In this document: positions 13,201 through 45,740 of the stretch, piece by piece
Layout: every line of letters begins with the position of its first letter
Numbering within the stretch: the first letter of the stretch is position 1
Assembly (NCBI GenBank): GCA_963806185.1
Contig: CAWDXE010000001.1
Span: 640,001-704,000 of the forward strand
Source of the DNA: an uncultured candidate division Zixibacteria bacterium
GTDB lineage: Bacteria; Zixibacteria; MSB-5A5; GN15; FEB-12
DNA: 64,000 nucleotides
Direction: 5' to 3'
Notes under the pieces: generated by a model
What the model was told of the DNA's origin: nothing
Seen by the model: only the letters and a program-made list of their open reading frames with translations
Database searches by the model: none
Made by a program: the position numbers and the translations under genes

Positions 13201-13262
13201 CGGATGCTCTCTTTCTGTTTTCCTCCACAATGACGCGATGCATCTTTATCGTATATTCATCC

Positions 13263-16062: not shown

Positions 16063-16078
16063 TTGATTGAAATGCAGT

Positions 16079-16109: not shown

Positions 16110-16195
16110 GTTTGTGGACCACCCGCAGCCGAGCTATGGGGTACCAAGTTTGAACCGCACGTCAGGCTCGGCCGTGCCAGTTATCGCGCCCGAGG

Positions 16196-16827: not shown

Positions 16828-16890
16828 TTACGGTCGGACCGGGAATCTTAAGGCGAAAAAAGTCTGGACAGAGTGAGGTTGGGCCCGCCA
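16828..16890 (+). repeat. Junction repeat family B, copy B1
   Basis: gggaatc..aaagtctggacagagtgaggttgggcccgcca(ttatc); minus strand reads WRAQPHSVQTFFALRFPVRP*. Confidence 0.72.
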
Positions 16891-17817
16891 TTATCATTTA
16901 AATAGCCCCATGCTATCTATACGACCATGCGTAATTGTGCATCCCGCCCCCCGTCCGCACTTGAAATCCATTTGGGTTAACAGAGATTTCCGGCGCCACG
17001 ATCGGCTCACCATCTGATTCTATAGACATTTAGCGCGCGGGGCGACCGACGCCCCCACGTTTCAAGACTCCCTCACTCACTGAACTTGCCGGGTAGCGTT
17101 CCTGGATTCGCATAGAACCTCGCTGCATCTGAAGTGTCCGTAGAGATCCGCGCGGCCACTTGCGCATCAGGTCCTCGCTGATTCGTAGAAGAAGGATTTC
17201 AGTGTACTCATAAAGTGTGGTCGCCAGACACTTACCGCATTGGGTCACACCGACAGTATGTCACTTGTTTTCCGCGCCGGTGTTGTGACAACCGTGACTC
17301 TTTCGGACAACACACCCTCTCCAGTCTACAGCTCACAACCGCTTTGGACAGTGTCCTTGGGGCTTTGAGTACCATCACTGCCTCCGGCGGCTCCTGGGAT
17401 TTGCCTACTCTGCGAATCCAACTGCTGACGGATCAGGGCATCAGTGTCTGGGTTCGGCTTCCGGGCCGGGGTACTTGGTTAGAATTCGTCGTCGTACGGG
17501 GCTAAGATAGAGGACACGTTTAATCCTTCTTGTCCCTTATCTTTGTCGTTGACAACCGGAGCTTTTTTACCATATTTATAGTAGGTGATTGAGCAGGTCA
17601 TCTTATACTCCGGACCGAGTACATCCGACGACAATTACTCTCCGGTGACCCCGACACGTAATACGTTACGAAATAGACACATCGGTAAGAGCTCCGCTCA
17701 TCACAGTTTGTGTGGTGAGGTGTCGAGCGTGGGTTGTGATGTGCTCTAAAATACGTGGATGGCTGCACCTACGAAACGAGCGACAATTGAAATCTCTAGA
17801 TAGTTCGAGGTGACACA

Positions 17818-19797
17818 ATGAATCGGTTTTCAATTTGGCTGGCCACAGCAGTGCTCTGGCTGCTGGCAACGTCGGTCTGGGCACTGGACCCTCATTTTCT
17901 TGCCCCTGTCGATTACACGGTCGGAAGTAATCCGCAGAGTTTGTGCATTGCCGACTTCAACAAGGACGGCAAGCCCGACCTTGCGACAGTCAACACTCTT
18001 GGCAATGACGTCTCGATACTGATGAACAACGGTGACGGCACGTTCGCCGCGGCCGTAAGTTATGCCGTTGGCACCCATCCGACGGCCGCTTGTATCATCG
18101 ACGTAGACGACGATAGTTGGCCGGATCTGGCAGTGACTAATTATGGTTCAGCCAGCATTTCGATTCTGATGAATCTGACTGATGGCACCTTCGACCCGGC
18201 GGTCAATTACAATTGTGGCATTCAACCCAACTCCATCTGTGCCGCCGACCTTGACGGCGACCTGAAGATTGACCTCGCAGTGGCAAACTTCGGTTCCGGC
18301 GACGTTTCAGTGATGATAAATCTCAACAACTCGAAGTTCCCGACAGCCGTTAGTTATGCAACCGGGAATAATCCCTTTTCCATTTGCTCCGCCGATTTCA
18401 ATGCCGACGGCAGGCCCGACCTGGCGGTGGTGAATGCCTCTGACAACAACGTGTCGATCCTCAGAAACACGGGAAGCGGGATTTATGCCGCCGCAGTAAA
18501 CTACCCGGTCGGAACCTATCCTGTGTCGATCGCTGCTGCCGATGTCAACGCGAACGGAACTGCGGATCTGGCCGTGGCCAATTCCGGATCAAACACGGCA
18601 TCGATACTCATCAACAATGGGGGCGGCGTATTTGCCGCGGCTGTTGACTACGACGCTGGAAGTTCACCCTCTTCAATTCTGGCGGCCGATCTGGACAAGG
18701 ACGGAAGGCCGGATCTGGCTGTGGCTAACATGACGGTCGACAGCATCTCTGTCCTGCGCAACAACGGCAACGGAACATATTCCGCCGCATTAACCCACGT
18801 CGCAGGGCTCGGACCGCAGTCGATCGGCAGTGCCGATATGAACGGCGACCTCATGCCCGACCTGGCAGTGGCCAACAGTTCTTCCTGGACCGTCTCGGTG
18901 CTGATAGGAGTTCGCCAGTGGAAGATAACCGCCTCGGCGGGTGCGAACGGGGCAATAGCGCCTACTGGAATCGTGGGCGTCTACGAAGGGACAGACCAAA
19001 CATTCGCGGTCAATCCGAACACCGGATACCACGTCGCCAATGTGATCGTCGATGGTTTGTCCATCGGACCGGTCACCAGTCATACGTTTTTCGGCATTGC
19101 CGGCAATCACACGATCAGTGCGACTTTTGCCATCAATACGTATACCATCACAGCATCAGCTGGTCCCAATGGATCGATTACCCCAAGCGGTATCACTGTC
19201 GTCAACTACGGTGGCGGTCAGACGTATAACATTGTGCCGGCAAGTTGTTACCATGTGTTGGATGTCACGGTGGACAGCGTTTCCGTTGGACCAGTGACGA
19301 CTTATCCATACACGAATGTGTCGGCAAATCACACCATTGAAGCGACGTTTGCAATCAACGTACACACGATTACAGCGACGGCCGGGATCCACGGTTCAAT
19401 CAATCCGAGCGGTCCCGTATCGGTTAACTGCGGATCGGACAAATCGTTTACCATAGTTCCGGACTCAGCTTTCTACGTAAAGGATGTCATGGTTGATGAC
19501 GTCAGTGTCGGAGCAGTGACCAATCACACGATCACTCATGCCGTCAAAGACTATACCATCGCGGCGACCTTCAGCTGTTGTGGCAATCTGACCGGCAACG
19601 TGGACTGCTCGACCGGTGACGGCGTCGACATCGGTGATCTAACGGCCTTGATAGACAATTTATTTATCACCTTCACGCCGCTGTGCTGCGAAGCAGAGGC
19701 CAACTGTGATGGCGTTGGTGGAGTGGATATTGGCGATCTCACGGCGCTGATTGACAACTTGTTCATCACTTTCACGCAGCTGGCGGCATGTCAGTAG
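17818..19797 (+). CDS. Secreted FG-GAP/VCBS-repeat protein with three Ig-like repeats and dockerin-like CTD
   Basis: Signal peptide; repeats 'ADFNxDGxPDLAVxN..VSILxNxGxGTF'; 'ITASAGxNGxIxPxG..Y.V.DV.VD..SVG' three times; CTD. Confidence 0.88.
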   Translation: MNRFSIWLATAVLWLLATSVWALDPHFLAPVDYTVGSNPQSLCIADFNKDGKPDLATVNTLGNDVSILMNNGDGTFAAAVSYAVGTHPTAACIIDVDDDSWPDLAVTNYGSASISILMNLTDGTFDPAVNYNCGIQPNSICAADLDGDLKIDLAVANFGSGDVSVMINLNNSKFPTAVSYATGNNPFSICSADFNADGRPDLAVVNASDNNVSILRNTGSGIYAAAVNYPVGTYPVSIAAADVNANGTADLAVANSGSNTASILINNGGGVFAAAVDYDAGSSPSSILAADLDKDGRPDLAVANMTVDSISVLRNNGNGTYSAALTHVAGLGPQSIGSADMNGDLMPDLAVANSSSWTVSVLIGVRQWKITASAGANGAIAPTGIVGVYEGTDQTFAVNPNTGYHVANVIVDGLSIGPVTSHTFFGIAGNHTISATFAINTYTITASAGPNGSITPSGITVVNYGGGQTYNIVPASCYHVLDVTVDSVSVGPVTTYPYTNVSANHTIEATFAINVHTITATAGIHGSINPSGPVSVNCGSDKSFTIVPDSAFYVKDVMVDDVSVGAVTNHTITHAVKDYTIAATFSCCGNLTGNVDCSTGDGVDIGDLTALIDNLFITFTPLCCEAEANCDGVGGVDIGDLTALIDNLFITFTQLAACQ

Positions 19798-29456: not shown

Positions 29457-29507
29457 TCAGGCAGTCCCTATCACCCGGTTGCGGAACGCGTCTCGTAGAC
29501 TCCGCCA
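29457..29507 (+). repeat. Junction repeat family A, copy A6
   Basis: tcaggcagtccctatcacccggttgcggaacgcgtctcgtagactccgcca(ctatc); minus strand reads WRSLRDAFRNRVIGTA*. Confidence 0.85.
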
Positions 29508-29554
29508 CTATCTTATCTCTATAATCACCAACGAGTTGCCGTGATATCAAAAAT

Positions 29555-29578
29555 CCGACCTCAGTCTCTGAAGACTCT
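29555..29578 (-). repeat. Inverted family-B arm at the left end of the hgc module
   Basis: ccgacctcagtctctgaagactct matches the reverse complement of 36204..36227 at 20/24 positions. Confidence 0.7.
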
Positions 29579-29597
29579 GCGAAATCCTGGATAGGCC

Positions 29598-29626
29598 TTG
29601 ACCAAAAATGGGAATTCGCCGATATT
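29598..29626 (+). promoter_or_regulatory. Sigma70-type promoter of arsR-hgc operon
   Basis: TTGACC-17 nt-GATATT, 9 nt before the arsR ATG; no RBS, so possibly leaderless. Confidence 0.6.
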
Positions 29627-29647
29627 GTTCGATATATGTCGAACAAT
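29624..29647. promoter_or_regulatory. ArsR/SmtB-type operator (11-2-11 inverted repeat)
   Basis: ATTGTTCGATA-TA-TGTCGAACAAT with one mismatch, overlapping the -10 box and the arsR start codon. Confidence 0.72.
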
Positions 29648-29992
29648 CGAAATAAGAAGATCGGCGACTATACCCGGATGTTCGCCGCTCTATCAAACCC
29701 ACACCGGGCAGCGATTCTCCTGCGCCTGGCCAATTGTTGCTGTGGTGATGCCATTAGTTGCAGCCACGATGAGATGCGAACCTGCGTCGGCGACGTCGCC
29801 AAACATCTCAAGATCGCGGCGTCCACGGTTTCACACCACATCAAAGAACTGCACCAAGCCGGATTGATCAAGATGGAGCGTTGTGGGAGAACCGTCAAAT
29901 GTTGCGTTGATGCTGAAGCCGTGCGAGAATTGGCCAATTTTCTCGATCGAGCGGTGAAGCAAGCACCGAAACCTGAACGAAAGAAAGCCTGA
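29636..29992 (+). CDS. arsR: ArsR/SmtB-family Cys-rich transcriptional repressor
   Basis: 'MFAALSNPHRAAIL..L', 'CCC', 'CVGDVA..L.IAASTVSHHIKEL..AGLI', 'CC'. Confidence 0.88.
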   Translation: MSNNRNKKIGDYTRMFAALSNPHRAAILLRLANCCCGDAISCSHDEMRTCVGDVAKHLKIAASTVSHHIKELHQAGLIKMERCGRTVKCCVDAEAVRELANFLDRAVKQAPKPERKKA

Positions 29993-30008
29993 GAGACGGA
30001 GGATCGAC

Positions 30009-30605
30009 GTGGACGATAACGGTAATTTCAATCAACCCGGTTGCTGTGAAGATGGCCAATGCTGCCCGCCAACACCAAGCGGCGAAAGTCGTAGGCCTGG
30101 CCTATGGAAAATCTGGATTTTCTCGGGGGTAATTCTGCTGGCGTGTACCGTGGCGGCGTATTCTTTGTTTTGGCGAAGCGACAAGACAGCGGCTTCGGCC
30201 TGTTGCCCGCCTGGTTCAGCAGCGGCTGCCGCGTGCGGCCAGGCCGCGACCAATCCCGGTTTCGACCACACGGCTGCCCCGATTGGTCTGTCACTTGTTG
30301 TTCTAACTAAAACAGGTGAGGCACTCTCCGGTGAAAAGCTGGCCATGATCGGCGAAGTGCGGACGTCCCTTGAGTCACATGACGCACGACTGCAATTCGA
30401 AACGCTTGAGTCAGGAGACACCGCCTTCCTGAAGCTCGTGAATCAGTATGGAATTACCGCACTTCCCGCGGTGATCGTGACGGGGCAAGACAAAGTCCTC
30501 GTGCTCAGTGAAAGACAGGTAAACGCCAATACGATCCTGAGCGTCTTCAATCCAGTCCCGGCGTCAGCCGCAACTGATTCAACGTCAAAGAGCGGATCAC
30601 TGTAG
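30009..30605 (+). CDS. Membrane-anchored Cys-rich protein with a possible thioredoxin-like C-domain
   Basis: GTG start after GGAGG; 'GCCEDGQCCPP', TM helix, 'ACCPP..AC', C-terminal 'LVNQYGITALPAVIV' (cis-Pro loop-like). Confidence 0.6.
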   Translation: MDDNGNFNQPGCCEDGQCCPPTPSGESRRPGLWKIWIFSGVILLACTVAAYSLFWRSDKTAASACCPPGSAAAAACGQAATNPGFDHTAAPIGLSLVVLTKTGEALSGEKLAMIGEVRTSLESHDARLQFETLESGDTAFLKLVNQYGITALPAVIVTGQDKVLVLSERQVNANTILSVFNPVPASAATDSTSKSGSL

Positions 30606-30610
30606 GAAGG

Positions 30611-31312
30611 ATGTCGATGGACTGGGTTGAACAGGTGCTGAAATCCTCGAGTTTCACCTTCGCCGCACTTCCCGCAGCCTTGGTACTCGGTCTTTTCACT
30701 GCGGTAACGTCCTGCTGCAATTTTGGAGTAATCGCTGCCGTCGTTGGCTTCGCAGGTAGTCGCGACGAAAGTCATAGTCGGCAAGATGCTCTATTCACGA
30801 CTATTGCCTTCACGCTTGGTACCATCGTTTCACTTTCCCTCATGGGGCTGGCGATCGGGCACATCACTGGGTTGGCAGGAACGAGTCTCCAACGGTACGG
30901 TACCGGTTTCATGGGCTTTGCCCTGATTTTCGCGGGGCTGGCGGCACTGAGGGTTCTGCCATTTCGTCTCCCATCCGTGGACTTGTCGAAGGTAAAGCGG
31001 CCAAGCGATCGCGCTGGCTCTACTGCATTTGGATTGGTGATAGGTACGGCGAGCATAGCTTGCACGATGGCCTGTTGCGGACCTCTTCTGCCGCTGGTGT
31101 TTGGTATGAGTGCCGCGCACGGGGGAGCACTTTGGGGTGCTGCCATCCTCGGCTTGTTCGCGATAGGATACAGTTTCCCCTTGGCTGCCCTGATGCTTGG
31201 CGTGGGTCTGGGAAGAACGATGGCAATCGCTCAGAAGGCAATCAAACCCATTCGCATGATAGCCGGAATAGGACTTGTCGCCGTCGGCTTCTGGCTGCTG
31301 GCGACTATGTAG
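30611..31312 (+). CDS. CcdA/DsbD-like transmembrane thiol-redox protein
   Basis: Six hydrophobic segments; 'LGLFTAVTSCC' and 'ACCGPLL' Cys motifs; 'LFAIGYSFP'. Confidence 0.72.
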   Translation: MSMDWVEQVLKSSSFTFAALPAALVLGLFTAVTSCCNFGVIAAVVGFAGSRDESHSRQDALFTTIAFTLGTIVSLSLMGLAIGHITGLAGTSLQRYGTGFMGFALIFAGLAALRVLPFRLPSVDLSKVKRPSDRAGSTAFGLVIGTASIACTMACCGPLLPLVFGMSAAHGGALWGAAILGLFAIGYSFPLAALMLGVGLGRTMAIAQKAIKPIRMIAGIGLVAVGFWLLATM

Positions 31313-31324
31313 GCACGTATAAGC

Positions 31325-32482
31325 ATGACCGATTCAAAAAGGTGCGACAAAGAAATTCGTATTGCAGGATGCTGCAACCCTCAGGTGGAAATCGTGAAGC
31401 TCGTTGATCGCCAGCCCGTGCCCATCTCAGAGCCGATTCCAAGGCTACCTTGGATAATCGGGGCGATGGAAACTCCAGCTGGTAAGGTCCCGGTTGTCCG
31501 ATCGAAATTGCAGCCAGCCGATATATTTGGCTCGTGGAAAGCGCGCTGGGGTATTCGACGCATGAGCTATCGTATTCGACCGCGTCTCTATGCAGTCGGC
31601 AATCCTACGGACGTTTCTCCAGTATTCGTGACCGCCAACTACAAGATGAGCTTTGACCGCCTGCGATCGCAGCTCGATGGAATCGACGGGTGGATTTTGG
31701 TACTCGACACCAAGGGAATCAACGTCTGGTGCGCTGCCGGTAAAGGCACGTTCGGGACGGCCGAGCTCATGAACCGACTCGAAGCCGTAGGCCTCAAGAA
31801 GATAGTCTCTCATCGTAGATTGATTGTCCCTCAACTCGGCGCCACCGGCGTCAGCGCACACATAGTTCGCGAGGGGAGTGGTTTTCATGTCTTTTACGGT
31901 CCCGTGCGTGCCAGGGACATTCGCGTTTTCATGCAAGCGGGAATGAAAGCGACTCCCGACATGCGACGCATCACCTTTACTTTCACGGAGCGCATCGTCC
32001 TCGTACCGGTCGATATTGTGGGCAATCTCAAATACGCACTCTTCGCCGCCGCCTGTCTTCTTCTTCTGTCCGGATTAGGGGCGAACTGGTATTCCCTCGA
32101 CCGCGTGGCTAAGTATGGTCTGACCAACGCGGCATTGGTGGTGTTGGCGGTGCTTTGCGGTGCCGTTCTGCCCGCGGTATTGGTCCCCTGGTTACCCGGC
32201 CGGGCGTTTTCGGTTAAGGGGGCATTCGCCGGAATTGTCCCGATGCTTGGCCTGGTGTTTCTCCACTGGCTGCACCCGGAAATCTTCCGCAGTTGGCTGA
32301 ACTATGCGAGTTGGCTCCTCTTCTTCCCGGCACTATCCAGTTTCATTGGCATGAATTTCACGGGCAGCTCAACGTACACGTCGCTGTCGGGCGTCAAGAA
32401 AGAGATGCGCGTCGCCCTGCCAGTGCAAATCGGCGCGGCCGTGTGCGGCTTGGTACTGTGGATCACAGGATTATTCGTATGA
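31325..32482 (+). CDS. hgcA: Mercury methylation corrinoid protein HgcA
   Basis: Cap-helix motif 'TKGINVWCAAGKGTFG', 'VTANYKMSFD', 'PQLGATGV', 'GPVRA.DI', C-terminal TMs with 'NFTGSSTYTSLSGVKKEM'. Confidence 0.97.
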   Translation: MTDSKRCDKEIRIAGCCNPQVEIVKLVDRQPVPISEPIPRLPWIIGAMETPAGKVPVVRSKLQPADIFGSWKARWGIRRMSYRIRPRLYAVGNPTDVSPVFVTANYKMSFDRLRSQLDGIDGWILVLDTKGINVWCAAGKGTFGTAELMNRLEAVGLKKIVSHRRLIVPQLGATGVSAHIVREGSGFHVFYGPVRARDIRVFMQAGMKATPDMRRITFTFTERIVLVPVDIVGNLKYALFAAACLLLLSGLGANWYSLDRVAKYGLTNAALVVLAVLCGAVLPAVLVPWLPGRAFSVKGAFAGIVPMLGLVFLHWLHPEIFRSWLNYASWLLFFPALSSFIGMNFTGSSTYTSLSGVKKEMRVALPVQIGAAVCGLVLWITGLFV

Positions 32483-32775
32483 GAACAATGTATCTTCCTG
32501 AAGTTGTCACTCTCGAATTCTATGTCGAGAAATGCAATGGGTGCGGCATGTGTGTTCAGGTTTGTCCGCACGCCGTCTTTGCAATCGAGAATAAACGAGC
32601 AAAGCTCATAGATCGCGATGCCTGCATGGAATGTGGCGCCTGCGCCTTGAATTGCCCGGTAGGTGCGATTAGCGTTAGAGCGGGAGTCGGCTGTGCTGCG
32701 GGTATTTTGAACGGAGCACTGCGTGGAACTGAACCCACTTGCGATTGCGGAGAGGACACGGGGAATTGCTGCTGA
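32479..32775 (+). CDS. hgcB: Mercury methylation 2[4Fe-4S] ferredoxin HgcB
   Basis: 'CNGCGMCVQVCPH', 'CMECGACALNCP', 'GVGCA', C-terminal 'CDC..CC'; ATGA overlap with the hgcA stop. Confidence 0.96.
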   Translation: MRTMYLPEVVTLEFYVEKCNGCGMCVQVCPHAVFAIENKRAKLIDRDACMECGACALNCPVGAISVRAGVGCAAGILNGALRGTEPTCDCGEDTGNCC

Positions 32776-32893
32776 AACGATATTCCGACTCCTATAGACT
32801 CTTTTCCAGTCACCGTCAATCCGTCCCCGACATCACCTGTATTTGATTCTCTTACAACGCGTTTCATCTATCACGGCATAGTGTAATGCTATT

Positions 32894-32997
32894 GGGAATC
32901 GGAACTTCACAAAAGTTTGGAGAAAGTGAGGTCGGGGCCGCCATGATAGTCTCCTCCATACTAATAAATGACAAACACACGAGAGGGCCGACCTCAC
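32894..32997 (+). repeat. Junction repeat family B, copy B2, with symmetric inverted arm
   Basis: gggaatc..aaagtttggagaaagtgaggtcggggccgcca; GTGAGGTCGG (32926-32935) and CCGACCTCAC (32988-32997) form a perfect 10-bp IR; minus strand reads WRPRPHFLQTFVKFRFP. Confidence 0.75.
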
Positions 32998-33068
32998 GCT
33001 CGCAGAACGACTGCCTGTCATCGAGAGAGATCGATTCTGTTCGCGGTAGCGATTTGATAATCAAGAGC

Positions 33069-35171: not shown

Positions 35172-36188
<1,017 letters not shown>

Positions 36189-36203
36189 ACAAAACGTCGC
36201 TTT

Positions 36204-36235
36204 AGAGTCTGGGGGGACTGAGGTCGGGATCGCGT
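36204..36235 (+). repeat. Junction repeat family B, copy B3
   Basis: agagtctggggggactgaggtcgggatcgcg; aligns with B1/B2 (agtctgg....agtgaggtcggg) and is followed by a homolog of the A5 downstream flank. Confidence 0.68.
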
Positions 36236-36248
36236 TGATCAAAATTCC

Positions 36249-36280
36249 GCCCCTTTGAGGAGTATGTCGAAGGGGCTTTT
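36249..36280 (+). terminator. Rho-independent terminator (homolog of 16079..16109)
   Basis: gcccctttga-ggagtatg-tcgaaggggc followed by tttt. Confidence 0.72.
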
Positions 36281-36420
36281 GTATGTGGGACAAAGCGTTC
36301 CGCGCATTAAGGTCTAGTTCGAGAGTGACGTTGTAAGCATTTCGATCTTTTCTGATTCATGTTGAGCGAAGCACTAACCTTAGCGCTGTATTATTTCCGG
36401 GGATGAGCGTGAAATTGCTC

Positions 36421-36480: not shown

Positions 36481-36915
36481 GTGCTATTTTCAAAAGGGTG
36501 TACCTACGCAATTCGAGCCGCCCTGCTTGTCTCGGTCAAGGAGACTAGTGACGGGCGGAAGTTCATCCCTATACGTGAGCTCGCGGACGAACTGGAACTC
36601 TCCTTCCATTTCCTCACCAAGATCATGCAGGTGCTCACCGAAGCACGGATTATGGAGTCGTTTCGCGGTCCGAACGGTGGCGTCGGTCTGGCCCGACCAG
36701 CCAGGGAGATCACTCTTGTGGATGTCATCGCGGCTGTGGACGGCATGGCCCTCTTCAAGGAGTGCGCCCTGGGACTCCCGGGTTGCGGTGAAAGAACCCC
36801 CTGCCCGCTCCACGTAGCCTGGGCAAAACGGCGCGAAGATCTGAAGCGGATGTTTGAAAAAACAACGCTGGCAAGCCTCGCGAAAGATTTGGATACCAAC
36901 TCATTTAGGAACTAA
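36481..36915 (+). CDS. Rrf2-family Fe-S transcriptional regulator
   Basis: 'YAIRAAL', 'FLTKIMQ.L', 'SFRGPNGG..LARP..EITL.DV..AVDG', 'CALGLPGC..PCPLH'. Confidence 0.9.
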   Translation: MLFSKGCTYAIRAALLVSVKETSDGRKFIPIRELADELELSFHFLTKIMQVLTEARIMESFRGPNGGVGLARPAREITLVDVIAAVDGMALFKECALGLPGCGERTPCPLHVAWAKRREDLKRMFEKTTLASLAKDLDTNSFRN

Positions 36916-37054
36916 TGGAAAGAGATGAGCGGGATGTTGTCGATACGATGCGTTCATATTTCGGATATCACACTCCGAAATCCGCTATTCATCCTCCAAC
37001 CCACGTTGCCAATCAATTCAGTCATTTCATCAAATAACCGAAGGATTATCTCTC

Positions 37055-37597
37055 ATGCGCAAGACCTTCACCTCGCGGGCAGTCATCATCCTGGCCTCCC
37101 TGGTTGGCTGCTGCATAATCGGCGGCTGTTCCTCCTCGCCCGAAACCGACGCCGAACGTCAGGCTCGATGGGCACATGGCAATCTGACAGAGTGGGAAAC
37201 GGAAAACGGCATCGGTCCGATATCGGCCGATGTACAACTCAGCGCAATTGACGCAGCCATGGCCGAACAGGGCAGGCAGCACTTCGCGCAGAAGTGCGCC
37301 ACTTGCCACTATCTCGATATGCGCAAAACCGGCCCGGCGCTGCGTGACGTTACCAAGCGTCGGAGTGCCGCCTACGTGCTCAACCAAGTGCAGAATCCTG
37401 AAACGATGGGCAAAGTGCATCCGGAAGGAAAGAAACTGGTGGCTCAGTATGCACAGTATATGACGATTCAGGGGATTACTCCGGAGATCGCCCGACAGCT
37501 ACTGGAATTTCTGCGCTCTGAGGCTGACAGGCCGGCCGTTGCCGCAGAGCAGCAGCCGGGTTTTGGAGTTCCCGCGCCACCTGCAACCGGCAAGTAA
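37055..37597 (+). CDS. Monoheme cytochrome c lipoprotein of clade II nos clusters
   Basis: 'GIGPI', 'CATCH', 'TGPALRDVTKRRS..YVLN..QNP..M'; directly upstream of nosZ. Confidence 0.85.
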   Translation: MRKTFTSRAVIILASLVGCCIIGGCSSSPETDAERQARWAHGNLTEWETENGIGPISADVQLSAIDAAMAEQGRQHFAQKCATCHYLDMRKTGPALRDVTKRRSAAYVLNQVQNPETMGKVHPEGKKLVAQYAQYMTIQGITPEIARQLLEFLRSEADRPAVAAEQQPGFGVPAPPATGK

Positions 37598-37646
37598 GAA
37601 TCAGATTGCAGGAGAAAGATGTCATTTCCCGAGAGGAGGATATAAG

Positions 37647-39560
37647 ATGCTTCAAGGTAAACGACTGGTGCCGGCTGGATTTGTTCTTCTGCTGGCAATT
37701 GGGCTGGGTTCCGGCTGCTCCAGGAAACAGGAAGCGGGCGGTTTCGGCGACGCCGCCGCAAAAGTGTATGTGGCGCCGGGCAGCTACGACGAGTTCTATG
37801 CCTTCATGTCTGGTGGCTTCAGTGGTCAAGTCTCGGTGTATGGACTGCCGTCCGGAAGGCTCTTGAAGGTTATTCCGGTGTTTGGGCAGGATCCGGAGAA
37901 GGGCTACGGGTACTCCGAGGAAACAAAACCACTCCTCATGACCACGCACGGATTCGTTCCGTGGGATGATGCGCACCATCCTCAGCTGTCGATGACCGAT
38001 GGGCAGACGGATGGCCGATGGCTCTTCATCAATGGTAACAACACGCCGCGAATTGCACGAATCGATTTGACTACCTTCGAGACCGTTGAGACAATTGAAA
38101 TACCCAATTCCGGCGGTAATCACGGCTCACCGTACCTGACCCCCGGCACGGAGTATGTTGTCGCATCGACCCGCTTCAGCGTGCCCATCCCGCAGAAAGA
38201 CGTACCGATAAGTTCCTACAAGGAGAACTTCAAGGGAACTATCTCCTATGTCAAAGTGGATTCGGCCACCGGTCGAATGAAGATCGCGTTCCAGATTCTG
38301 GTTCCGGGAATCAACTATGACCTTTCGCGTTCCGGCAAGGGCCCGTCATATGGCTGGTCGTTCTTCACTTCCTATAATACAGAACAGGCCAATACCCAGC
38401 TTGAAGTGAACGCCTCGCAAAACGACAAGGACTTTGTGGCGGCTGTTAACTGGAAGCTGGCCGAACAGCTGATCGCGCAGGGAAAAGGGCAGATCTGGAA
38501 AGCACCGCATTATCACAACTATATGGACAGCGCGGATGTCGGTAAGAGCGAGGTGATCTCTGAAGTTCCGATGCTTGTCGCCAAGGACAACCCGGGACTG
38601 GTCTATTTTCTTCCGACGCCCAAGTCGCCGCACGGTTGTGATGTCGATCCGTCGGGAGAGTACATCGTGGCCTCCGGAAAACTGGCGGCCCTCATTCCGG
38701 TGCACTCCTTCAGCAAGTTTCAGACAGCGGTCGCAAACAAGGAATTCGACGGAGAATTCGACGGCATTCCGATTCTCAAATATGAATCGGTATTGGCCGG
38801 TGAGGTGAAGGAGCCTGGTCTCGGGCCGCTGCACACCGAGTTTGACGGCAAAGGTTTCGGTTATACCTCGATGTTCCTCTCTTCCGAAATCGTCAAGTGG
38901 AAGATCGGGACGTGGGAAGTGGTCGATCGCATACCGACCTATTACTCCATCGGGCACCTGATGATCCCCGGCGGCGACACGAAACAGCCGTACGGCAAGT
39001 ATGTCATCGCCCTCAACAAGATCACCAAGGATCGTTACCTGCCAACCGGTCCCGAGCTTGCACAGGCGGCGCAACTGATCGATATCAGCGGCGACAAGAT
39101 GAAACTGCTGCTCGATTTTCCGACCATTGGCGAGCCGCACTATGCGCAGGCCTGCCCAGCGTCACTTATCAAGGATAAGTCGGTTCGCTGGTATCCGATC
39201 GAAAATAACCACAATCCATACGCAATTCATGCTGAAGGAGAGGCGCGGGTGGAACGGGATGGACGGAACGTGCACGTCTATATAAGCACCATACGCACTC
39301 ACTTTGCCCCTGACAACATCGAGGGGGTCAAGGTCGGAGACAAGGTCTATTTCCACGTTACCAACCTGGAGCAGGACTGGGATGTGCCGCACGGCTTTGC
39401 GGTCATGGGCTCGAACAACTCGGAGTTGTTGATTATGCCCGGCCAGACACGGACTATCCTGTGGGAGCCTAAGGAAGTCGGCGTGATCCCGTTCTACTGC
39501 ACCGATTTCTGCTCCGCTCTGCATCAGGAAATGCAGGGTTGGATTCGCGTGTCGATTTGA
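37647..39560 (+). CDS. nosZ: Clade II (Sec-dependent) nitrous oxide reductase
   Basis: Lipoprotein-type signal with no RR motif; 'SGGFSGQ..VYGLPSGR', CuZ His motifs DAHH, GNHG, SPHG, PLHT, EPHY; CuA 'CTDFCSALHQEM'; GGAGG RBS. Confidence 0.97.
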   Translation: MLQGKRLVPAGFVLLLAIGLGSGCSRKQEAGGFGDAAAKVYVAPGSYDEFYAFMSGGFSGQVSVYGLPSGRLLKVIPVFGQDPEKGYGYSEETKPLLMTTHGFVPWDDAHHPQLSMTDGQTDGRWLFINGNNTPRIARIDLTTFETVETIEIPNSGGNHGSPYLTPGTEYVVASTRFSVPIPQKDVPISSYKENFKGTISYVKVDSATGRMKIAFQILVPGINYDLSRSGKGPSYGWSFFTSYNTEQANTQLEVNASQNDKDFVAAVNWKLAEQLIAQGKGQIWKAPHYHNYMDSADVGKSEVISEVPMLVAKDNPGLVYFLPTPKSPHGCDVDPSGEYIVASGKLAALIPVHSFSKFQTAVANKEFDGEFDGIPILKYESVLAGEVKEPGLGPLHTEFDGKGFGYTSMFLSSEIVKWKIGTWEVVDRIPTYYSIGHLMIPGGDTKQPYGKYVIALNKITKDRYLPTGPELAQAAQLIDISGDKMKLLLDFPTIGEPHYAQACPASLIKDKSVRWYPIENNHNPYAIHAEGEARVERDGRNVHVYISTIRTHFAPDNIEGVKVGDKVYFHVTNLEQDWDVPHGFAVMGSNNSELLIMPGQTRTILWEPKEVGVIPFYCTDFCSALHQEMQGWIRVSI

Positions 39561-39577
39561 CAACGAAAGAGATGTGA

Positions 39578-40738
39578 GTGAAACCTGACATTCCAATAGG
39601 CGATCCCGCAAATGCCGCGGGGTCGCTTGCCCGGTCGAACCCCCGTCATGACGGTGCGGGTCGGCGCCGGCGCATGCATCCCGGACTGCGAGTGCTGCTG
39701 GCTGTTGCTGCTCTGCTGCTGTCTCTCACCTACTTCTTTCCGCTTTGGGAGATATCGTTGGACGCTCCCCAGTATCCGGAGGGGCTCGGCCTGGAGATTT
39801 GGATCAATCAGATGCAGGGGCAACACCCGGGTGATCTGAACAAGATCAACAATTTGAATCATTATATAGGGATGAAGCACATCCAGCCGAAATCCATTCC
39901 GGAGCTGAAAATCATGCCCTGGATTATGCGTGGCGTGATGATTATTGGCCTCATAGCCGCAGCGACCGGACGACGATCGATTCTGATACTCTGGCTCCTC
40001 GTGTTCCTGGTGATGGCCATTGCGGGGCTCGTTGATTTCTATATGTGGGGGTATGATTACGGGCACAATCTCGACACGCAACATGCCATCATCAAGGTCC
40101 CGGGGATGAGCTATCAGCCCCCGTTGATCGGCTCCAAGAAATTACTGAATTTCAAGGCGATCTCACTTCCGGGTATCGGGGGATGGTTTGCCATCGCTTC
40201 GTTCGTCATTGGTGCTTTGATCTGGCTGTATGATCGGAGGCGATTCGGTCGCCGAGCTCGGGTCACAGCGGGTGCGATGGCTGGGGTAACAGTGGGTCTG
40301 ATGTTCCTGCTCGCACTCGGCTGCGGTACAACCGGACCGACGCCCATTCAGTATGGAGTAGACCAGTGCGATTACTGCAGGATGACCATCGCGGACCGGA
40401 GATTCGGCACAGAATTGATCACCGACAAAGGAAAGTCGCACAAATACGATTCTATCGAGTGTCTTGCCGCCGCCGAGTTGAAGTCGGCACAGGATGCAAA
40501 GAAGATACGCTCTCAGTGGGTGACCGACTTTGCACATCCGGGAACCTTCCTGGACGTGCGGGCCGCTACGTTCGTTGCCACCGAGCGGCAAAAGAGTCCC
40601 ATGGGCGTGGGACTAGTTGCGGTTGGCACAGACTCCGACGCCGCTGTTCTCATACAATCGGTGGGCGGAGCCGTGGTCGACTGGAACGGCGCAAAGCGCC
40701 TGGTGGCAGAAACATGGAAACTCTCGGAAGAAGAATGA
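39578..40738 (+). CDS. nosL: NosB-like membrane protein fused to NosL copper chaperone
   Basis: N-part 'PLW.I.L.APQYPEGL..INNLNHYIGMK', 'WGYDYGHNLD..YQPPLIG.K.LLNF'; C-part 'CDYCRMTI', 'YDSIEC', 'SPMG'; start could also be the ATG at 39674. Confidence 0.85.
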   Translation: MKPDIPIGDPANAAGSLARSNPRHDGAGRRRRMHPGLRVLLAVAALLLSLTYFFPLWEISLDAPQYPEGLGLEIWINQMQGQHPGDLNKINNLNHYIGMKHIQPKSIPELKIMPWIMRGVMIIGLIAAATGRRSILILWLLVFLVMAIAGLVDFYMWGYDYGHNLDTQHAIIKVPGMSYQPPLIGSKKLLNFKAISLPGIGGWFAIASFVIGALIWLYDRRRFGRRARVTAGAMAGVTVGLMFLLALGCGTTGPTPIQYGVDQCDYCRMTIADRRFGTELITDKGKSHKYDSIECLAAAELKSAQDAKKIRSQWVTDFAHPGTFLDVRAATFVATERQKSPMGVGLVAVGTDSDAAVLIQSVGGAVVDWNGAKRLVAETWKLSEEE

Positions 40739-42027
40739 GGCGTCGGATGTCGCGCGATTCTCGGCTCTTCCCGCTGTCATTTCGCCGGCTGATTATCCTG
40801 TTCTGGATCAGCGGCGCAATAGAACTCCTGGGATCTTTCGACAGTAATGCGTCCACCATTCACGTGCAGCCTGCCGGTCATGTGCGATCGATCGCCGAAG
40901 CGATCGCCGGGGCCTCCCCAGGCGACACCATACGAGTCGCCGCCGGACGCTACGAGGAATTCGACCTGCACATCACCAAGCCGATGACGCTGCTTGGTCA
41001 GGCCTGGCCGGTCATTGATGCGAACGGACGAGGTCCTATTTTCGAGATAACCGCCCCGGGGGTGACTGTCTCGGGCTTTGAGTTACGCGGTGTGCCGGTG
41101 AGTTTTGTGAAAGAGTATGCCGCCATCCTTGTGAGCAACTCAGCCGATTGTGAAATTCGCGGCAATCGCTTCATTGACGATTTCTTTGCCGTCTATCTGG
41201 CAAAATCCCAGTTTTGCCGCATTCTTGACAATGCAATCACGGGATCAGCGAAGGAGCTCACCACAGCCGGCAATGGCATCCATCTCTGGAGTTGCTCCAA
41301 CATCGATATTACCAACAACGTGATTCGGGGACACCGTGACGGCATCTACTTCGAATTCGTGACCCACAGCGCGATAGTGAACAACTCGAGCGAAGACAAC
41401 CTCCGATACGGATTGCACTTCATGTTTTCGGATACCTGCCGGTACGAACGGAATCGCTTCATTCACAACGGGGCCGGCGTCGCCGTTATGTATACGGATT
41501 TCGTCGACATGATCGACAACACCTTCGAGGACAACTGGGGTGGCGCATCCTACGGCCTGCTCCTGAAGGATATCAAGGCCAGCCGGGTGCTTCACAATCA
41601 GTTCACGCGCAATTCAATCGGAATCCACATGGAAGGCTCGGATTACGTTCACATTGAAAGGAATCGTTTTACCGCCAACGGATGGGCCATAAAGATCATG
41701 GCCAACTGCGTGCAAAGTTCGATTGAACAGAATGACTTCATCGACAATTCCTTTCAGGTAGCGACCAACAGCCGTCACACCTTCAGCAGCTTCTCGGGCA
41801 ACTACTGGAGCCCGTACTGTGGCTTTGATCTGGATCGGGACGGGTATGGTGATGAGCCCTACCGTCCGGTAAGCCTTTACAGCTTATTGGTGGAGTCGGA
41901 TCCATCCACGCTCGTGTTAGTGCGAAGCCTGCTCATCGATGTTCTGAATCTGGCTGAACGAATGGTGCCGACCTTCACTCCGGAAGCGCTGGTTGATACC
42001 AAACCGCGCATGAGGCCCGTTACATGA
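40735..42027 (+). CDS. nosD: NosD periplasmic maturation protein
   Basis: CASH beta-helix 'GNGIHLW', 'HRDGIYFEF', 'RYGLHFMFS', 'GNYWS.Y.G.DLD.DGYGD.PYRP'; ATGA overlap with the nosL stop. Confidence 0.93.
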   Translation: MRRRMSRDSRLFPLSFRRLIILFWISGAIELLGSFDSNASTIHVQPAGHVRSIAEAIAGASPGDTIRVAAGRYEEFDLHITKPMTLLGQAWPVIDANGRGPIFEITAPGVTVSGFELRGVPVSFVKEYAAILVSNSADCEIRGNRFIDDFFAVYLAKSQFCRILDNAITGSAKELTTAGNGIHLWSCSNIDITNNVIRGHRDGIYFEFVTHSAIVNNSSEDNLRYGLHFMFSDTCRYERNRFIHNGAGVAVMYTDFVDMIDNTFEDNWGGASYGLLLKDIKASRVLHNQFTRNSIGIHMEGSDYVHIERNRFTANGWAIKIMANCVQSSIEQNDFIDNSFQVATNSRHTFSSFSGNYWSPYCGFDLDRDGYGDEPYRPVSLYSLLVESDPSTLVLVRSLLIDVLNLAERMVPTFTPEALVDTKPRMRPVT

Positions 42028-42734
42028 TTGAGATCAGTCGCCTGCATAAACGTTTCGGACGATTCGTGGCGCTCCATGAGATTGACCTTTTCATCGAACG
42101 CGGAAAGGTTACCGGAATTATCGGACCCAACGGTTCGGGCAAATCTACGTTGATGAAATCATTGCTTGGACTGGTGACGCCGACGTCGGGCACCATCACC
42201 ATTAATGGCTATCTCCTGAATGGTGCGAGTGATTACCGCCGGTCGTTGGGGTACGTACCACAATTGGCTCGCTTCCCCCTGGATCTGACGGGACGGGAGG
42301 TTATTGACGTAGTCAAGGGTCTGCGGGATGAGGGCGCTCGCTTGGAGTCGGAACTCATTCGCCTATTCGGCCTGGAGTCGGAGATCTCGAAGCGGGTGCG
42401 GGCAATGTCGGGTGGTACCCGCCAGAAGCTGAGTGTGGTACTCGCCTGCATGTATGACCCTGCTCTGCTGATCTGCGATGAGCCTACGGCCGGACTCGAT
42501 CCAATTGCGAACACCCGACTGAAAGATCTGTTGCTCTCTTTGAAAGAGAAGAAACGGACCGTGCTCATCACAACCCACATCATGAGCGATTTGGAAGAGG
42601 TCGCCGACAATGTCGTGGTTCTGCTCGAAGGTCGAGTTCGCTTTGCCGGTGCGATCCGAGAATTGAAGCTGGCGACCGATGAACCACGCCTCGAGGCAGC
42701 CGTAGCCCGCCTGCTGGAAAAGGGGGCCGCGTGA
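42024..42734 (+). CDS. nosF: NosF ABC ATPase
   Basis: Walker A 'GPNGSGKST', signature 'MSGGTRQK', 'DEPTAGLDP'; between nosD and nosY. Confidence 0.92.
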   Translation: MIEISRLHKRFGRFVALHEIDLFIERGKVTGIIGPNGSGKSTLMKSLLGLVTPTSGTITINGYLLNGASDYRRSLGYVPQLARFPLDLTGREVIDVVKGLRDEGARLESELIRLFGLESEISKRVRAMSGGTRQKLSVVLACMYDPALLICDEPTAGLDPIANTRLKDLLLSLKEKKRTVLITTHIMSDLEEVADNVVVLLEGRVRFAGAIRELKLATDEPRLEAAVARLLEKGAA

Positions 42735-43522
42735 AATTGACTATGCACATGGCCTGGTACGCGATCCGGGACCTCATGCGTAATCGCTGGGGTCTGCTCT
42801 ACACGGCGTTCTTTGCGGTGCTCACCGTCGGCCTGTTCCAACTGCAGGCGCAATCGGCCAAGGTTGCCGTCAGCCTCATGAGTATCTGTCTTTTTCTCAT
42901 CCCGCTGGTCGCTTCAATATTCGGTACGATCTATTTCTACAATTCGCGTGAATTTGTAGAACTGGTATTGACTCAGCCGGTTGCTCGCAGAACTGTCTTT
43001 CTCGGTATGTTTCTGGGGTTGTCGTTCGCTCTGGTAGCCGGATTTGTTCTCGGCGTTGGTATTCCCACAGTTATATTGGGCGACTGGTCGAGTGGCCAGC
43101 TTGTCTCAATGACTCTTCTGTTAACGGTTGGTTCACTCCTGACCGTCATCTTCCTGGCTATCTCATTCTTGCTGGCGATCATTTTTGATGATCGGGGCAA
43201 GGGGCTGGCCGCAGTGCTGGCGGTCTGGCTCTTCACCGCTCTCGTGTACGACGGGCTGGTGCTATTAGCCGCCATGACTTTCTCGGATTATCCGCTCGAA
43301 ACGCCACTCCTGGTGGCCTCAATGGCCAATCCGATCGACCTGGCGCGGGTTACCTTGCTCATTCAGACGGATTGGGCCGCTCTCATGGGCTACACCGGAG
43401 CCGTCTTCAATCGCTTTTTCGGGACAGCTCTCGGAGTTACGATTGCAGCAATTTCGTTGGGACTCTGGACGGCGGTGCCGTTACTCGCGGGCATTCGGAA
43501 GTTTAGACTCAAAGATCTTTAG
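42731..43522 (+). CDS. nosY: NosY ABC permease
   Basis: 'IPLVASIFGTIYFYNSREF.EL.L.QP', 'YDGL', 'NPIDLARV..L..D..ALMGYTGAVF'. Confidence 0.9.
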   Translation: MKLTMHMAWYAIRDLMRNRWGLLYTAFFAVLTVGLFQLQAQSAKVAVSLMSICLFLIPLVASIFGTIYFYNSREFVELVLTQPVARRTVFLGMFLGLSFALVAGFVLGVGIPTVILGDWSSGQLVSMTLLLTVGSLLTVIFLAISFLLAIIFDDRGKGLAAVLAVWLFTALVYDGLVLLAAMTFSDYPLETPLLVASMANPIDLARVTLLIQTDWAALMGYTGAVFNRFFGTALGVTIAAISLGLWTAVPLLAGIRKFRLKDL

Positions 43523-43593
43523 ACGTTTCAGGCTTTGGGGTCGTTCCGGAACCTGCAACGTATTCGTCTCAAATTCGGAGGATATGGTCAGTT

Positions 43594-45096
43594 ATGCAAT
43601 TGATGCAGTCAGCGAAGAATATGATTAATCGGCTGAAGACGGCACATTCACAGAGCGTCGCATCACTCTACTTACTCACCTTCGGCCTTTTCACACTCGT
43701 CGGTGCCTGTGCGGCTCTGGCGATGCAGCTCGAGCTCTGGAGTGCTTCCTCAACATTGTTCAGTGGCCAGCTATTTGCGCGCCTGCTCACCCAGCACGGT
43801 ATGGTGATGACCTTCGTCGTACTCATACCCCTGATCCCGGCAGTGCTCGGCAACTTCATCTTGCCGTCAGCTGTGGGCTCGCGCGACATGGCCATGAGGA
43901 GATCAAACATAGCCGGTTGGTTTATGCATCTGGTCGGCGCCATTGCGATAGTTGTGGCAGTGGAGTTGGGTGCTTATGACACCGGCTGGACCATGAACAC
44001 GCCGCCCGGTTCGTCAAAGAGCTTCCAGTTGCTCATCGTCGGTCTTGGCCTGATTGCCGTGTCCACCCTTTTGCTCAACCTCGCGATTGCCAGAATCGTT
44101 CTGTCGCGCAAGTATCGCACCATACCTCTCGGTAAGCTTCCGGTACTGGCATGGTTCTTCCTGATCGGCTCTTTGGTTGTACTCATTGTCAGCCCGGTGC
44201 GGATCTTCACGCTGGCACTGTTGTCTCTTCACCAATTTGGCCACACGCCGGTCTTTTCGCTGCTGGACGCCGGCGGCATCATTCGGTATGAACACCTGTT
44301 CTGGGCTTATGCGGGACCGGCGACTTATGCCGCTGTCCTTCCGGCACTGGGCGTCACTTTTGAGGTTCTGGCCGCTTGTGCCGGCACTCCTTTGTTTGCC
44401 CGTCGCGTCGTCATCGTGGCTGCTGTCATATTGGGTCAGCTCGGCCTGGTTTCGTGGGGTCAGCACCTGCTTGTAACAACTGATTCGGAGCTGTTGGCAT
44501 TGACCGGCAGCCTGTTCGGTTTGCTTACTGCCGTTCCGACCTCACTGATACTCCTGAGCTGGTTGATGATGTTGTCTCGGGCAAGAAGTTGGCAGTCGGT
44601 TCCGCTGCTGATCACCTGGCTCCAGACTAGTCTCATAGCACTCGGCGGGCTCGCAGGGATCGTGCTTGCTATTCCTTCGACAGGTCTGACATTTCACAAT
44701 AGTTATTTGACAACCGGCCATCTCCACCTGGTCGCCCTTGGCCTTGTCCTTCTATCATTCCTGGCCGGTCTCATCCACTGGTGGCCTTCCTTCATGCAAA
44801 GGCGCATCGCGCCCGCGGCCGGACGGGCCGTCGCTATCACCATCGTGGTTGGGATCATGACGACTTATCTCCCCATGCTCATCAATGGTGTCGGGGGATC
44901 GCCGAAAGCGCTCAATGTCTATCCCGTTCAATATGAACCGATGCACATGGTATCGACCGCCGGTACGGTCATCCTTCTGGCGGGTCTGCTTGGCGCCGTA
45001 TGGCTTTTTGCTCGAGGCATTCTTGGTGGAAGATTGTCGACTCAGTCAGTAAGGACAGTCTCAAGTGGTGAAGTTGTCTTCCTCGATATACAGTAA
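43594..45096 (+). CDS. Divergent heme-copper oxidase subunit I homolog lacking two CuB ligands
   Basis: About 12 TM with 'QHG..M.F', 'LGNF.LP..G.RDMA', 'GWT', 'HNSY..GHLH'; canonical YSHPxVY and WxHH appear as YAGPATY and WGQH. Confidence 0.85.
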   Translation: MQLMQSAKNMINRLKTAHSQSVASLYLLTFGLFTLVGACAALAMQLELWSASSTLFSGQLFARLLTQHGMVMTFVVLIPLIPAVLGNFILPSAVGSRDMAMRRSNIAGWFMHLVGAIAIVVAVELGAYDTGWTMNTPPGSSKSFQLLIVGLGLIAVSTLLLNLAIARIVLSRKYRTIPLGKLPVLAWFFLIGSLVVLIVSPVRIFTLALLSLHQFGHTPVFSLLDAGGIIRYEHLFWAYAGPATYAAVLPALGVTFEVLAACAGTPLFARRVVIVAAVILGQLGLVSWGQHLLVTTDSELLALTGSLFGLLTAVPTSLILLSWLMMLSRARSWQSVPLLITWLQTSLIALGGLAGIVLAIPSTGLTFHNSYLTTGHLHLVALGLVLLSFLAGLIHWWPSFMQRRIAPAAGRAVAITIVVGIMTTYLPMLINGVGGSPKALNVYPVQYEPMHMVSTAGTVILLAGLLGAVWLFARGILGGRLSTQSVRTVSSGEVVFLDIQ

Positions 45097-45119
45097 CCAA
45101 TAAAACAGGAGGAGTAGCG

Positions 45120-45740
45120 ATGAAGAAAGCATCCGGGCCCCGCACATCTCTCATCCAGGTTCTGGTAGAAGAACACCGACACATCAAGCTAGGCTTGTCC
45201 ATTCTCAACGCCATGCACAAACGCATAACAAGACGCCTTGCCGTCCCCCCGGCAGACCTCGCGACATTGGTCCGCTTCATAAGTGAGTACGCCGACAAGA
45301 TTCATCACCACGGCGAAGAGGAACTGCTGTTCCCGGCGCTGGAGCGGACGTCCAATCGGCAATTGAAGCAGATGGCGGGAAAACTGGGGACTCAACATCT
45401 CATGGGTCGATTATTTGTGAGTGAGATGAAGGATGCCCTCAGGGAGGCTCGGACCAATCGAAGAGGTTGGCGGAACTGCTTTCTGGAGAACGCCAGGGCG
45501 TATCACACACTGCTGACTATTCATATCTGCGATGAAAACAATATGTTCTTTCCGTTGGCCGAGAAAGCACTCAGTCGTGCGAAGGCGACTGTAGGGTCTA
45601 CTCCCGAGGCATTGGCTCCAAGTAAGAAGAGATGGGAAGCGCGTGTGGAGCGGCTGTACCAAAAGTACTGTCCAGGGGTCTCATCTCCCTGTGGCGGCGG
45701 GTCGTCGACGGCCAGCTGTGATTGCGAGAATCGAACCTAA
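45120..45740 (+). CDS. Hemerythrin (HHE) domain protein
   Basis: 'EEHRHI', 'YADKIHHHGEEELLFPAL', 'QH..GR', 'HICDENNMFFPLAE'; GGAGG RBS. Confidence 0.85.
   Translation: MKKASGPRTSLIQVLVEEHRHIKLGLSILNAMHKRITRRLAVPPADLATLVRFISEYADKIHHHGEEELLFPALERTSNRQLKQMAGKLGTQHLMGRLFVSEMKDALREARTNRRGWRNCFLENARAYHTLLTIHICDENNMFFPLAEKALSRAKATVGSTPEALAPSKKRWEARVERLYQKYCPGVSSPCGGGSSTASCDCENRT

Follow-up and report, generated by a model that had tools for sequence, protein, structure and literature searches.

A small hgcAB unit with recombinase-type ends in a tRNA-Asp array of a Zixiibacteriota genome, a candidate vehicle for mercury methylation genes

The 64,000-nucleotide stretch of a Zixiibacteriota genome analyzed here (the window) carries the mercury methylation genes hgcA and hgcB in an array of small units behind a tRNA-Asp gene, which raises the question of how these genes came to lie there and whether the unit that holds them is the form in which they traveled. 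The spread of the capacity to make methylmercury is disputed. In the available sections of the respective papers, extensive transfer was argued by McDaniel 2020 (PMC7438021), yet no hgcA was reported near insertion sequences (IS), near transposases or on viral contigs; among 18,731 gammaproteobacterial plasmids surveyed, none carried hgcA, and the transfer risk was concluded to be low (PMC9690531); Lin 2023 (PMC10083202) argued for mainly vertical descent with loss; hgcAB transfer was deduced from trees (PMC9948709); and hgcAB was already known in Zixibacteria (PMC12484752). A search of the published literature (abstracts mainly, without supplements or most subscription papers) returned no hgcAB unit bounded by attachment (att) sites or IS and no account of the arrays described below. 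We report hgcAB at four loci whose mobile-element-type borders could be defined and which share one operon design that includes a regulator of the ArsR family, and a genome in which two divergent hgcAB copies occur, one of them among arsenic-resistance genes. At the locus in the window, hgcAB very likely arrived horizontally, and we hold with moderate confidence that it came as a recombinase-less 3.4-kb unit, which would have been integrated at tRNA-Asp by a large serine recombinase (LSR) acting in trans. Exact junctions and named recombinases turn the dispute over trees into questions at the level of junctions.

Genes and ends of the hgc unit

The hgc unit measures 3,436 bp (29506-32941) and holds arsR-orf-ccdA-like-hgcA-hgcB, with genes taking up 3,107 of the 3,436 bp between two CCGC cores (29502-29505 and 32938-32941; cf. 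Table 1). An earlier reading of the letters alone (the sequence-only reading) had placed this gene set, in this order, between the junctions A6 and B2, and the positions agree. The motifs that it had named were found as well, NVWCAAGK in the cap helix of the 385-residue HgcA and CMECGAC plus a terminal CC in the 98-residue HgcB, which also has two CX2CX2CX3C motifs, and both family scores exceed their cut-offs. The two genes are adjacent and unfused (the fusion model NF043039 stayed under its cut-off), and a crude Kyte-Doolittle scan gave four hydrophobic segments in the C-terminal membrane domain of HgcA. By every sequence criterion examined, this is the HgcA/HgcB mercury methylation pair. 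The orf protein matched no family in Pfam or NCBIfam; its thioredoxin- and ArsD-like neighbors in the Atlas lie below 0.9 and offer a lead only. Spacing within the unit is tight, with 18 bp between the left arm and a promoter-like site and 57 bp separating the B arm from the hgcB stop. A promoter-operator region had been noted ahead of arsR: a palindrome overlaps the arsR start, and the promoter-like site is weak by itself (four such sites found vs 2.3 expected). Within the window genome, the palindrome core occurs only ahead of its two arsR copies; it is present in two relatives, G135 and G078, and is likely the ArsR operator (G000 denotes the window genome, other G numbers phylum relatives, L numbers loci, and C numbers contigs). 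By analogy with the protein families and with strain ND132, the operon probably works as an ArsR-autoregulated unit with a membrane thiol-redox pair alongside HgcAB. The G+C content of the unit (0.546 vs 0.564) gives no sign of foreign origin.

The unit is delimited by two types of recurrent sites, A and B, and its ends were read from a comparison of 164 junctions in 36 regions of 30 genomes, the regions having been picked for holding A or B. The median unit there is 2.0 kb long, and three intact LSR genes occur across the 164 junctions. A non-coding left arm with an inverted B half-site was found at 15 of the 164 junctions, in 11 genomes, the half-site lying at +43 to +47 from the core in 14 cases and at +51 in one; A6 (+47) and B2 (+44) are among these 15. 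The next site after a left arm was B in 12 of 12 scored cases vs 79 of 108 otherwise (p 0.038), and the relative G214 gives one further left-arm/B pair. On this pairing, the arm following A6 forms the left end of the hgc unit and B2 the right end, and the neighboring unit starts with the arm at 32988; the site after B2, namely B3, is again of type B. The sequence-only reading had described inverted B arms at both ends of the cassette. The inverted arms are real, since those at 29555 and 32988 each beat 5,000 of 5,000 shuffles, but they do not both belong to this unit, which is delimited by the cores of A6 and B2. The A arm (29457-29501) forms the right end of the preceding unit, and the arm at 32988 forms the left end of the following one, so that the hgc unit ends in one inverted (left) and one direct (right) B half-site. 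Its ends score 57 and 57 bits and are not eroded relative to other sites. Both arms are present on a unit that itself has no recombinase, and they may be cognate, a reading to be weighed together with the pairing p of 0.12 without the window genome and with the 45-bp offset, both taken up below. On the minus strand, A6 encodes WRSLRDAFRNRVIGTA followed by a stop, likely the orphan C-terminal tail of a serine recombinase, and B2 is open for 36 codons. Run X1, which may be the source sample, has a depth of about 2 and contains two small contigs at >99% identity, one of which covers 29464-29705 across the A6 junction with one difference. The same type of left arm occurs on units carrying arsenic-resistance, RND efflux and MerR-regulated metal genes (L273/L274 in G011:C24; L298 in G214:C4).

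Table 1. Coordinates of the hgc unit, the array sites and a recombinase remnant (window positions)
Feature	Position	Strand	Remark
A6	29457-29505	-	attR-type scar closing upstream unit; CCGC core 29502-29505, common to tRNA-Asp 3' end
Left (P'-type) arm of hgc unit	29506-29579	+	non-coding; inverted B half-site 29555-29579
Promoter-like site TTGACC-17-GATATT	29598-29626	+	9/12 consensus match alone
Palindrome overlapping arsR start	29627-29644		16-bp core
arsR, ArsR/SmtB-family regulator, cysteine-rich	29636-29992	+	NF033788 above cut-off
orf, 198-residue Cys-rich protein with hydrophobic stretch	30009-30605	+	no family
CcdA/DsbD_TM-like membrane protein	30611-31312	+	ArsG match weak, far under cut-off
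hgcA, mercury methylation corrinoid protein	31325-32482	+	NF040863 445 bits, cut-off 275
hgcB, dicluster ferredoxin	32479-32775	+	NF040864 127 bits, cut-off 99
B2, right (P-type) arm of hgc unit	32833-32941	-	B half-site 32911-32935; CCGC core 32938-32941
Inverted B half-site of next unit (araC-adh-akr; ends at B3)	32988-33012	+	left end of downstream unit
Array site A1	1777-1840	+	profile
Array site A2	3338-3401	+	profile
Array site A3, eroded core	7446-7509	+	profile
Array site A4, eroded core	10018-10081	+	profile
Array site A5, exact 16-bp copy of host tRNA-Asp 3' end	16000-16063	+	profile
Array site B1	16828-16890	+	profile
Array site B3, weak	36173-36235	+	profile, 8.4 bits
48-codon stub of 3' end of LSR gene	36215-36358	-	54% to G020 enzyme

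The tRNA-Asp array and its candidate recombinases

The tRNA-Val/tRNA-Asp genes lie at C1:631615-631848, about 8.2 kb ahead of the window (in the window itself, ARAGORN found no tRNA and an Rfam search gave 0 matches), and are followed by nine same-strand sites in the order A1-A5, B1, A6, B2, B3. With profiles built without the window genome's own sites, a search of both strands of its 3.65 Mb returned seven A and four B matches, one B being the weak B3; six A copies are in the window, all on one strand, and one lies behind tRNA-Asn. Matches to the A pattern occur in 25 of 201 genomes of the phylum and matches to B in 59 of 131 of the order, and reversed controls gave 0. On the minus strand, A encodes WRGLRDAFRNWVIENAA followed by a stop; among 47 distinct A arms, this frame shows 66 synonymous and 59 non-synonymous changes and two stops, vs 41/83/8 and 43/97/6 in the other two frames. 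We infer that A is the attR arm holding the C-terminus of the enzyme's circle form. The tRNA-Asp 3' end in the sites, the A frame, and the presence of LSRs at tRNA-Asp in relatives together lead us to read A and B as attR-type scars of tandem integration. Other identities considered for A (an IS end, attC, or an RNA element) were dropped, as the tRNA end and the reading frame explain it.

Candidates for the enzyme come from the relatives. PF07508 matched in 53 of 101 family genomes, and of 30 LSR loci inspected, 22 abut a tRNA and six abut tRNA-Asp. In G020, the minus-strand gene of a 490-residue LSR terminates within tRNA-Asp, and A is the first site downstream. In a clade of 554-residue LSRs at tRNA-Asp, the attL core is directly followed by the inverted B motif, so these are the likeliest enzymes for B; the members at L078, L081 and L292 are 94-95% identical across two families, and this suggests a recent spread. 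LSR-bearing elements measure 17-63 kb. Tyrosine integrases were represented only by fragments within the arrays read in five array-rich genomes.

Several further observations concern the sites and arrays. In the window genome, a single A site lies in the 1.4-kb island behind tRNA-Asn (G000:C1:491400-492809) and a single B site 2 kb behind the tmRNA gene (C1:972550-974996), the same arms thus occurring at other RNA genes. Of 39 copies of the A tail (e.g., at 3338-3401), 22 end in AA, with length variants and each of the three stop codons represented, and the ending resembles the tmRNA tag of this genome, GENNYAMAA. Tags that end in AA act as degrons recognized by ClpXP, and it is possible that the A tail tags the excised-form recombinase for this protease. 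Arrays of small units at A/B sites were seen in G217, G014:C5, G132:C6, G002:C75, G081:C5 and G143:C183, with 24 B matches in G217, 19 sites within 40 kb in G014, and a median unit of 2 kb; a third site type and empty 50-60-bp units are also present in relatives' arrays. In G012:C1 (L288/L289), a stretch of at least 80 bp following tRNA-Asp recurs without a change behind the B site 1.1 kb on, as if a unit had doubled. The cargo is strain-variable in every relative read. After B3, the window carries a nosZ cluster (Rrf2, cytochrome c, nosZ, nosL, nosD, nosF, nosY; 36481-45740), and a nosZ cluster in the tRNA-Asp array of G020:C8 lies between two A sites in opposite orientation. Other cargo of the window array (4974-6574, 7620-9410, 10840-19797) comprises a Rieske/cytochrome b pair, a peptidase S74-domain repeat protein, two SBBP propeller proteins, a cupin and an FG-GAP protein, and one G132 array unit encodes a protein with a thiol-activated cytolysin domain (PF01289; L279:9281-11038). 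The comparison thereby exposes a phylum-wide array system at tRNA-Asp.

HgcA phylogeny and further bounded operons

The host phylum is Zixiibacteriota, in agreement with the Zixibacteria-like host proposed earlier, and the window-genome assembly is 82% complete. The top GTDB-wide match of the window HgcA (65% identity) comes from Zixiibacteriota, and five HgcA proteins from phylum genomes are identical to Zixiibacteriota HgcA entries. Relatedness was judged by GTDB group codes (f1, the host family, f4, f5 and f14). hgcA was sought in 251 of 285 phylum genomes and found in 42, patchily inside genera and in nine of 94 other family genomes; the marker orf of the module occurs in 0 of 107 family genomes and nine of 284 other phylum genomes. 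In a careful HgcA tree (50 rows, LG+G4; 72 GTDB-wide rows left out, five of them duplicates), the window sequence groups with its own second copy, two f5 sequences, one f4 sequence and L162 (100/98), and the f1 label needs six changes; a quick tree of 117 rows agrees. Monophyly of the 11 f1 HgcA sequences was rejected (approximately unbiased [AU] test, p 1.5e-65). These results bear out the patchy, horizontal distribution that the sequence-only reading had described for hgcAB, and what it had named as contrary to transfer, syntenic vertical inheritance among relatives, is not the pattern found (hgcA in nine of 94, orf in 0 of 107, family monophyly rejected). The f14 HgcA sequences form one side of a branch (90/88) and families are clustered beyond shuffles, so that vertical descent operates elsewhere in the phylum. 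In the hgcA-positive relatives whose tRNA-Asp arrays were read (G078, G111, G093), hgcA lies on other contigs. HgcA was not found in IMG/VR, PLSDB plasmids or INPHARED phages, and the one relative that a metagenome scan with the ccdA-like protein returned lies on a contig of 1 kb.

The same operon has mobile-element-type borders at three more places in the phylum, which makes such units likely vehicles of horizontal spread. The window genome itself, the sole one of 251 with two full-length hgcA genes, has a second copy at C7:92194-95355 with 68-70% DNA identity (two hgcA copies in one bin had been reported earlier, a result that its own authors were unable to confirm). The two HgcA proteins share 259 of 384 residues (67%) and the fourfold sites (40/102) are near saturation. 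This copy, whose ccdA-like gene is frameshifted (possibly an assembly error), ends about 340 bp ahead of a 21-bp repeat of the tRNA-Ser(CGA) end, within a 16.3-kb island (C7:79329-95718) that has arsD/arsA/acr3-like genes by eye and no integrase. Recognizable tRNA/tmRNA islands account for about 3.7% of the assembly, and each of the two hgc copies lies in one. In G135, from another order, the five-gene operon (L127:856-5753, C3) lies between IS481-type ends (left 862, right 4251) with CCATCG on both outer sides, a 6-bp target duplication, and adjoins an IS481-like copy with a frameshifted transposase. In G078 (L150:6967-10924, C3), a 3.9-kb arsR-to-hgcB unit is flanked on both sides by perfect direct repeats of 49 bp; arms of this type stand ahead of tmRNA 3' repeats in four genomes, the proximal copy in G078 lacks the fragment, and we infer a link to the tmRNA on contig C9. 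Vehicles were thus seen at four of 12 loci with arsR plus ccdA upstream vs 0 of 30 others (p 0.004; a post hoc comparison of loci that are not independent). Co-selection with metal(loid) resistance as a route of hgcAB spread is supported.

Two general tests for borders gave few further leads. tRNA 3' fragments near hgcA matched at three of 42 loci, of which only the second copy of the window genome counts: the G036 match bounds a small island without hgc and the G135 match is weak and 12 kb off. This test overlooked the degenerate fragment of G078. A self-BLAST of flanks matched at three of 42 loci, including an inverted 43-bp repeat in G137, and is insensitive, because both loci of the window genome went undetected. 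A vehicle in G282 was rejected, since its 32-bp repeat, located near tRNA-Ala and again behind hgcB, is a REP-like (repetitive extragenic) palindrome and the operon follows dnaX-recR; G243 showed no flank repeat and one doubtful A match.

Proposed arrival of the unit and related systems

In the history that we favor, a circle with a B-type attP (B arm, CCGC core, and left arm with the inverted B half-site) would have recombined with the tRNA-Asp end, integration at its CCGC end being catalyzed by an LSR supplied in trans, most likely of the 554-residue clade. Later arrivals, which account for seven junctions, would have pushed the hgc unit outward and left A6 as its left neighbor. Further movement would take place only with a helper element or together with a neighbor (accretion), and the unit is probably dormant, because no LSR gene is present in this assembly. 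The proposal of a candidate physical vehicle for hgcAB stands, with present-day mobility forming no part of its support. A number of results weigh against this history. Movement of the unit is proposed from sequence, and most hgcAB loci examined have no visible vehicle. The expectation that other hgcAB loci would show the same flanking motifs failed, with A/B sites at 0 of 121 other hgcA loci, many of them cut by contig ends, and the compared genomes include none from the host genus. Without the window genome, the left-arm/B pairing is statistically weak (11 of 11 vs 78 of 101, p 0.12). Compared with its place in LSR-bearing attL, the inverted half-site is displaced by about 45 bp away from the core, and a simple symmetric attP does not account for this offset. 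Searches of the window genome's own 82%-complete assembly with PF07508 and PF00239 found no LSR or resolvase gene, and its two tyrosine recombinases (PF00589) lie on other contigs and are XerC/XerD-like by eye. The 554-residue LSR element of G214 ends only at a weak B-like site (11.3 bits), 63 kb on. In 39 of 106 sites, B stays open for 34 codons before a stop is reached, but its arms have no synonymous bias (81/279), and B therefore looks constrained as DNA. No circle joint or empty site appeared in run X1, a single run with a share of 0.10 and a depth of about 2 that is uninformative on this point. Finally, LSR stubs follow A5 and B3 in the window, and units thus also arise by deletion from larger elements.

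The last point leads to the chief alternative, in which a larger, self-mobile island brought hgcAB in horizontally by site-specific integration at tRNA-Asp and then lost its recombinase and other genes by deletion, so that what is left is immobile and 3.4 kb was never a traveling form. The stubs after A5 and B3 and at sites in G111, G048 and G217 speak for it, as do the 17-63 kb of LSR-bearing elements and the position of the unit far from the tRNA, with seven junctions between; moreover, the accessible part of McMurdie 2011 (PMC3146451) gives both readings for integrase-less ssrA islands. The left arm, however, is of the non-coding type with fixed spacing, seen in 11 genomes, and is not itself an LSR stub; 42 of the 69 open reading frames in such units were scanned and none matched a recombinase family at E 1e-12; and the unit's 57- and 57-bit ends are not eroded. 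We regard trimming as unlikely, though a sizeable chance has to be left to it. It is improbable that homologous or illegitimate recombination moved or copied the operon into an existing small unit from a source in the same lineage, such as the tRNA-Ser arsenic island, and that the att ends never carried it between cells. The two copies are nearest by path and sisters in the careful tree, but that sister branch is weak (96/62), 67% protein identity and fourfold sites at 40/102 indicate no recent duplication, and no IS ends or flank repeats were found in the unit. Least probable, and largely refuted at this locus, is an ancestral hgcAB made patchy by loss, with the sites incidental or the junctions an artefact of assembly. 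Some HgcA groups do follow families (f14 and the clustering beyond shuffles), and 38 of 42 phylum loci showed no vehicle in our tests; against this stand the strain-variable cargo of every array read, the location of both copies in islands that make up so little of the assembly, the AU rejection of family monophyly and, as regards an artefact, the run X1 contig across the A6 junction.

Beyond arrival by an LSR in trans, we tentatively entertain, as rather a doubtful whole, a wider reading of these loci. In it, arsR-orf-ccdA-hgcA-hgcB would be a portable, self-regulated mercury methylation module that Zixiibacteriota have put onto different vehicles on at least four occasions (a tRNA-Asp LSR unit, an island at tRNA-Ser, a tmRNA-type array, and an IS481-ended mini-transposon). 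The window unit would belong to an undescribed family of recombinase-less cassettes that are still moved in trans by tRNA-Asp serine recombinases, building arrays of dozens of 1-4 kb units, and the excised enzyme would receive an AA-ending degradation tag from the att site.

Arrays of small recombinase-less units are familiar from integrons, and tandem islands inserted by LSRs at a host gene's 3' end from composite islands of the staphylococcal cassette chromosome (SCC) type. Unlike integrons, no IntI was found beside the array (the two PF00589 genes being those noted above), and the units have their own promoters and end in tRNA-end cores. A closer parallel is offered by the ssrA islands of Dehalococcoides, including those with vcrABC, which, in the part of the source available (PMC3146451), are tandem islands behind an RNA gene with a reverse-strand serine recombinase of about 540 residues whose 3' end overlaps attL; completion of that 3' end on the circle or by a neighbor was proposed, and, with 15 islands lacking an integrase, many such units were read as cis-mobilizable elements. 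As in those islands, tandem same-strand repeats of the anchor's 3' end bound variable, biogeochemically important cargo, and a reverse-strand LSR overlapping attL is present in relatives, the window genome having a 48-codon stub. The array differs in its target, tRNA-Asp, in a common core of mostly 4-7 bp vs a 20-bp repeat, and in its several LSR clades, two arm types, units of mostly 1-4 kb, and hgcAB cargo. The hgc unit also lacks the six-gene integration module (dsiB, dsiA, parB, mom and others) and has five operon genes only, which fits the integrase-less subclass. In the tycheposons of Prochlorococcus, as far as the available text describes them (bioRxiv 10.1101/2020.12.28.424599), cargo is likewise tRNA-targeted, new arrivals push older ones inward, and partial tRNAs and broken integrases remain; tycheposons have an integrase of their own, mostly of the tyrosine type, and often replication genes, and the hgc unit has neither. 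Compared with arsR-hgcA-hgcB of Pseudodesulfovibrio mercurii ND132, as given in the accessible portion of its report (bioRxiv 10.1101/2022.10.17.512643), the operon has orf and the ccdA-like gene between arsR and hgcA, and mobile-element borders. From its likeness to the Dehalococcoides ssrA islands and to tycheposons, the architecture is of a known kind.

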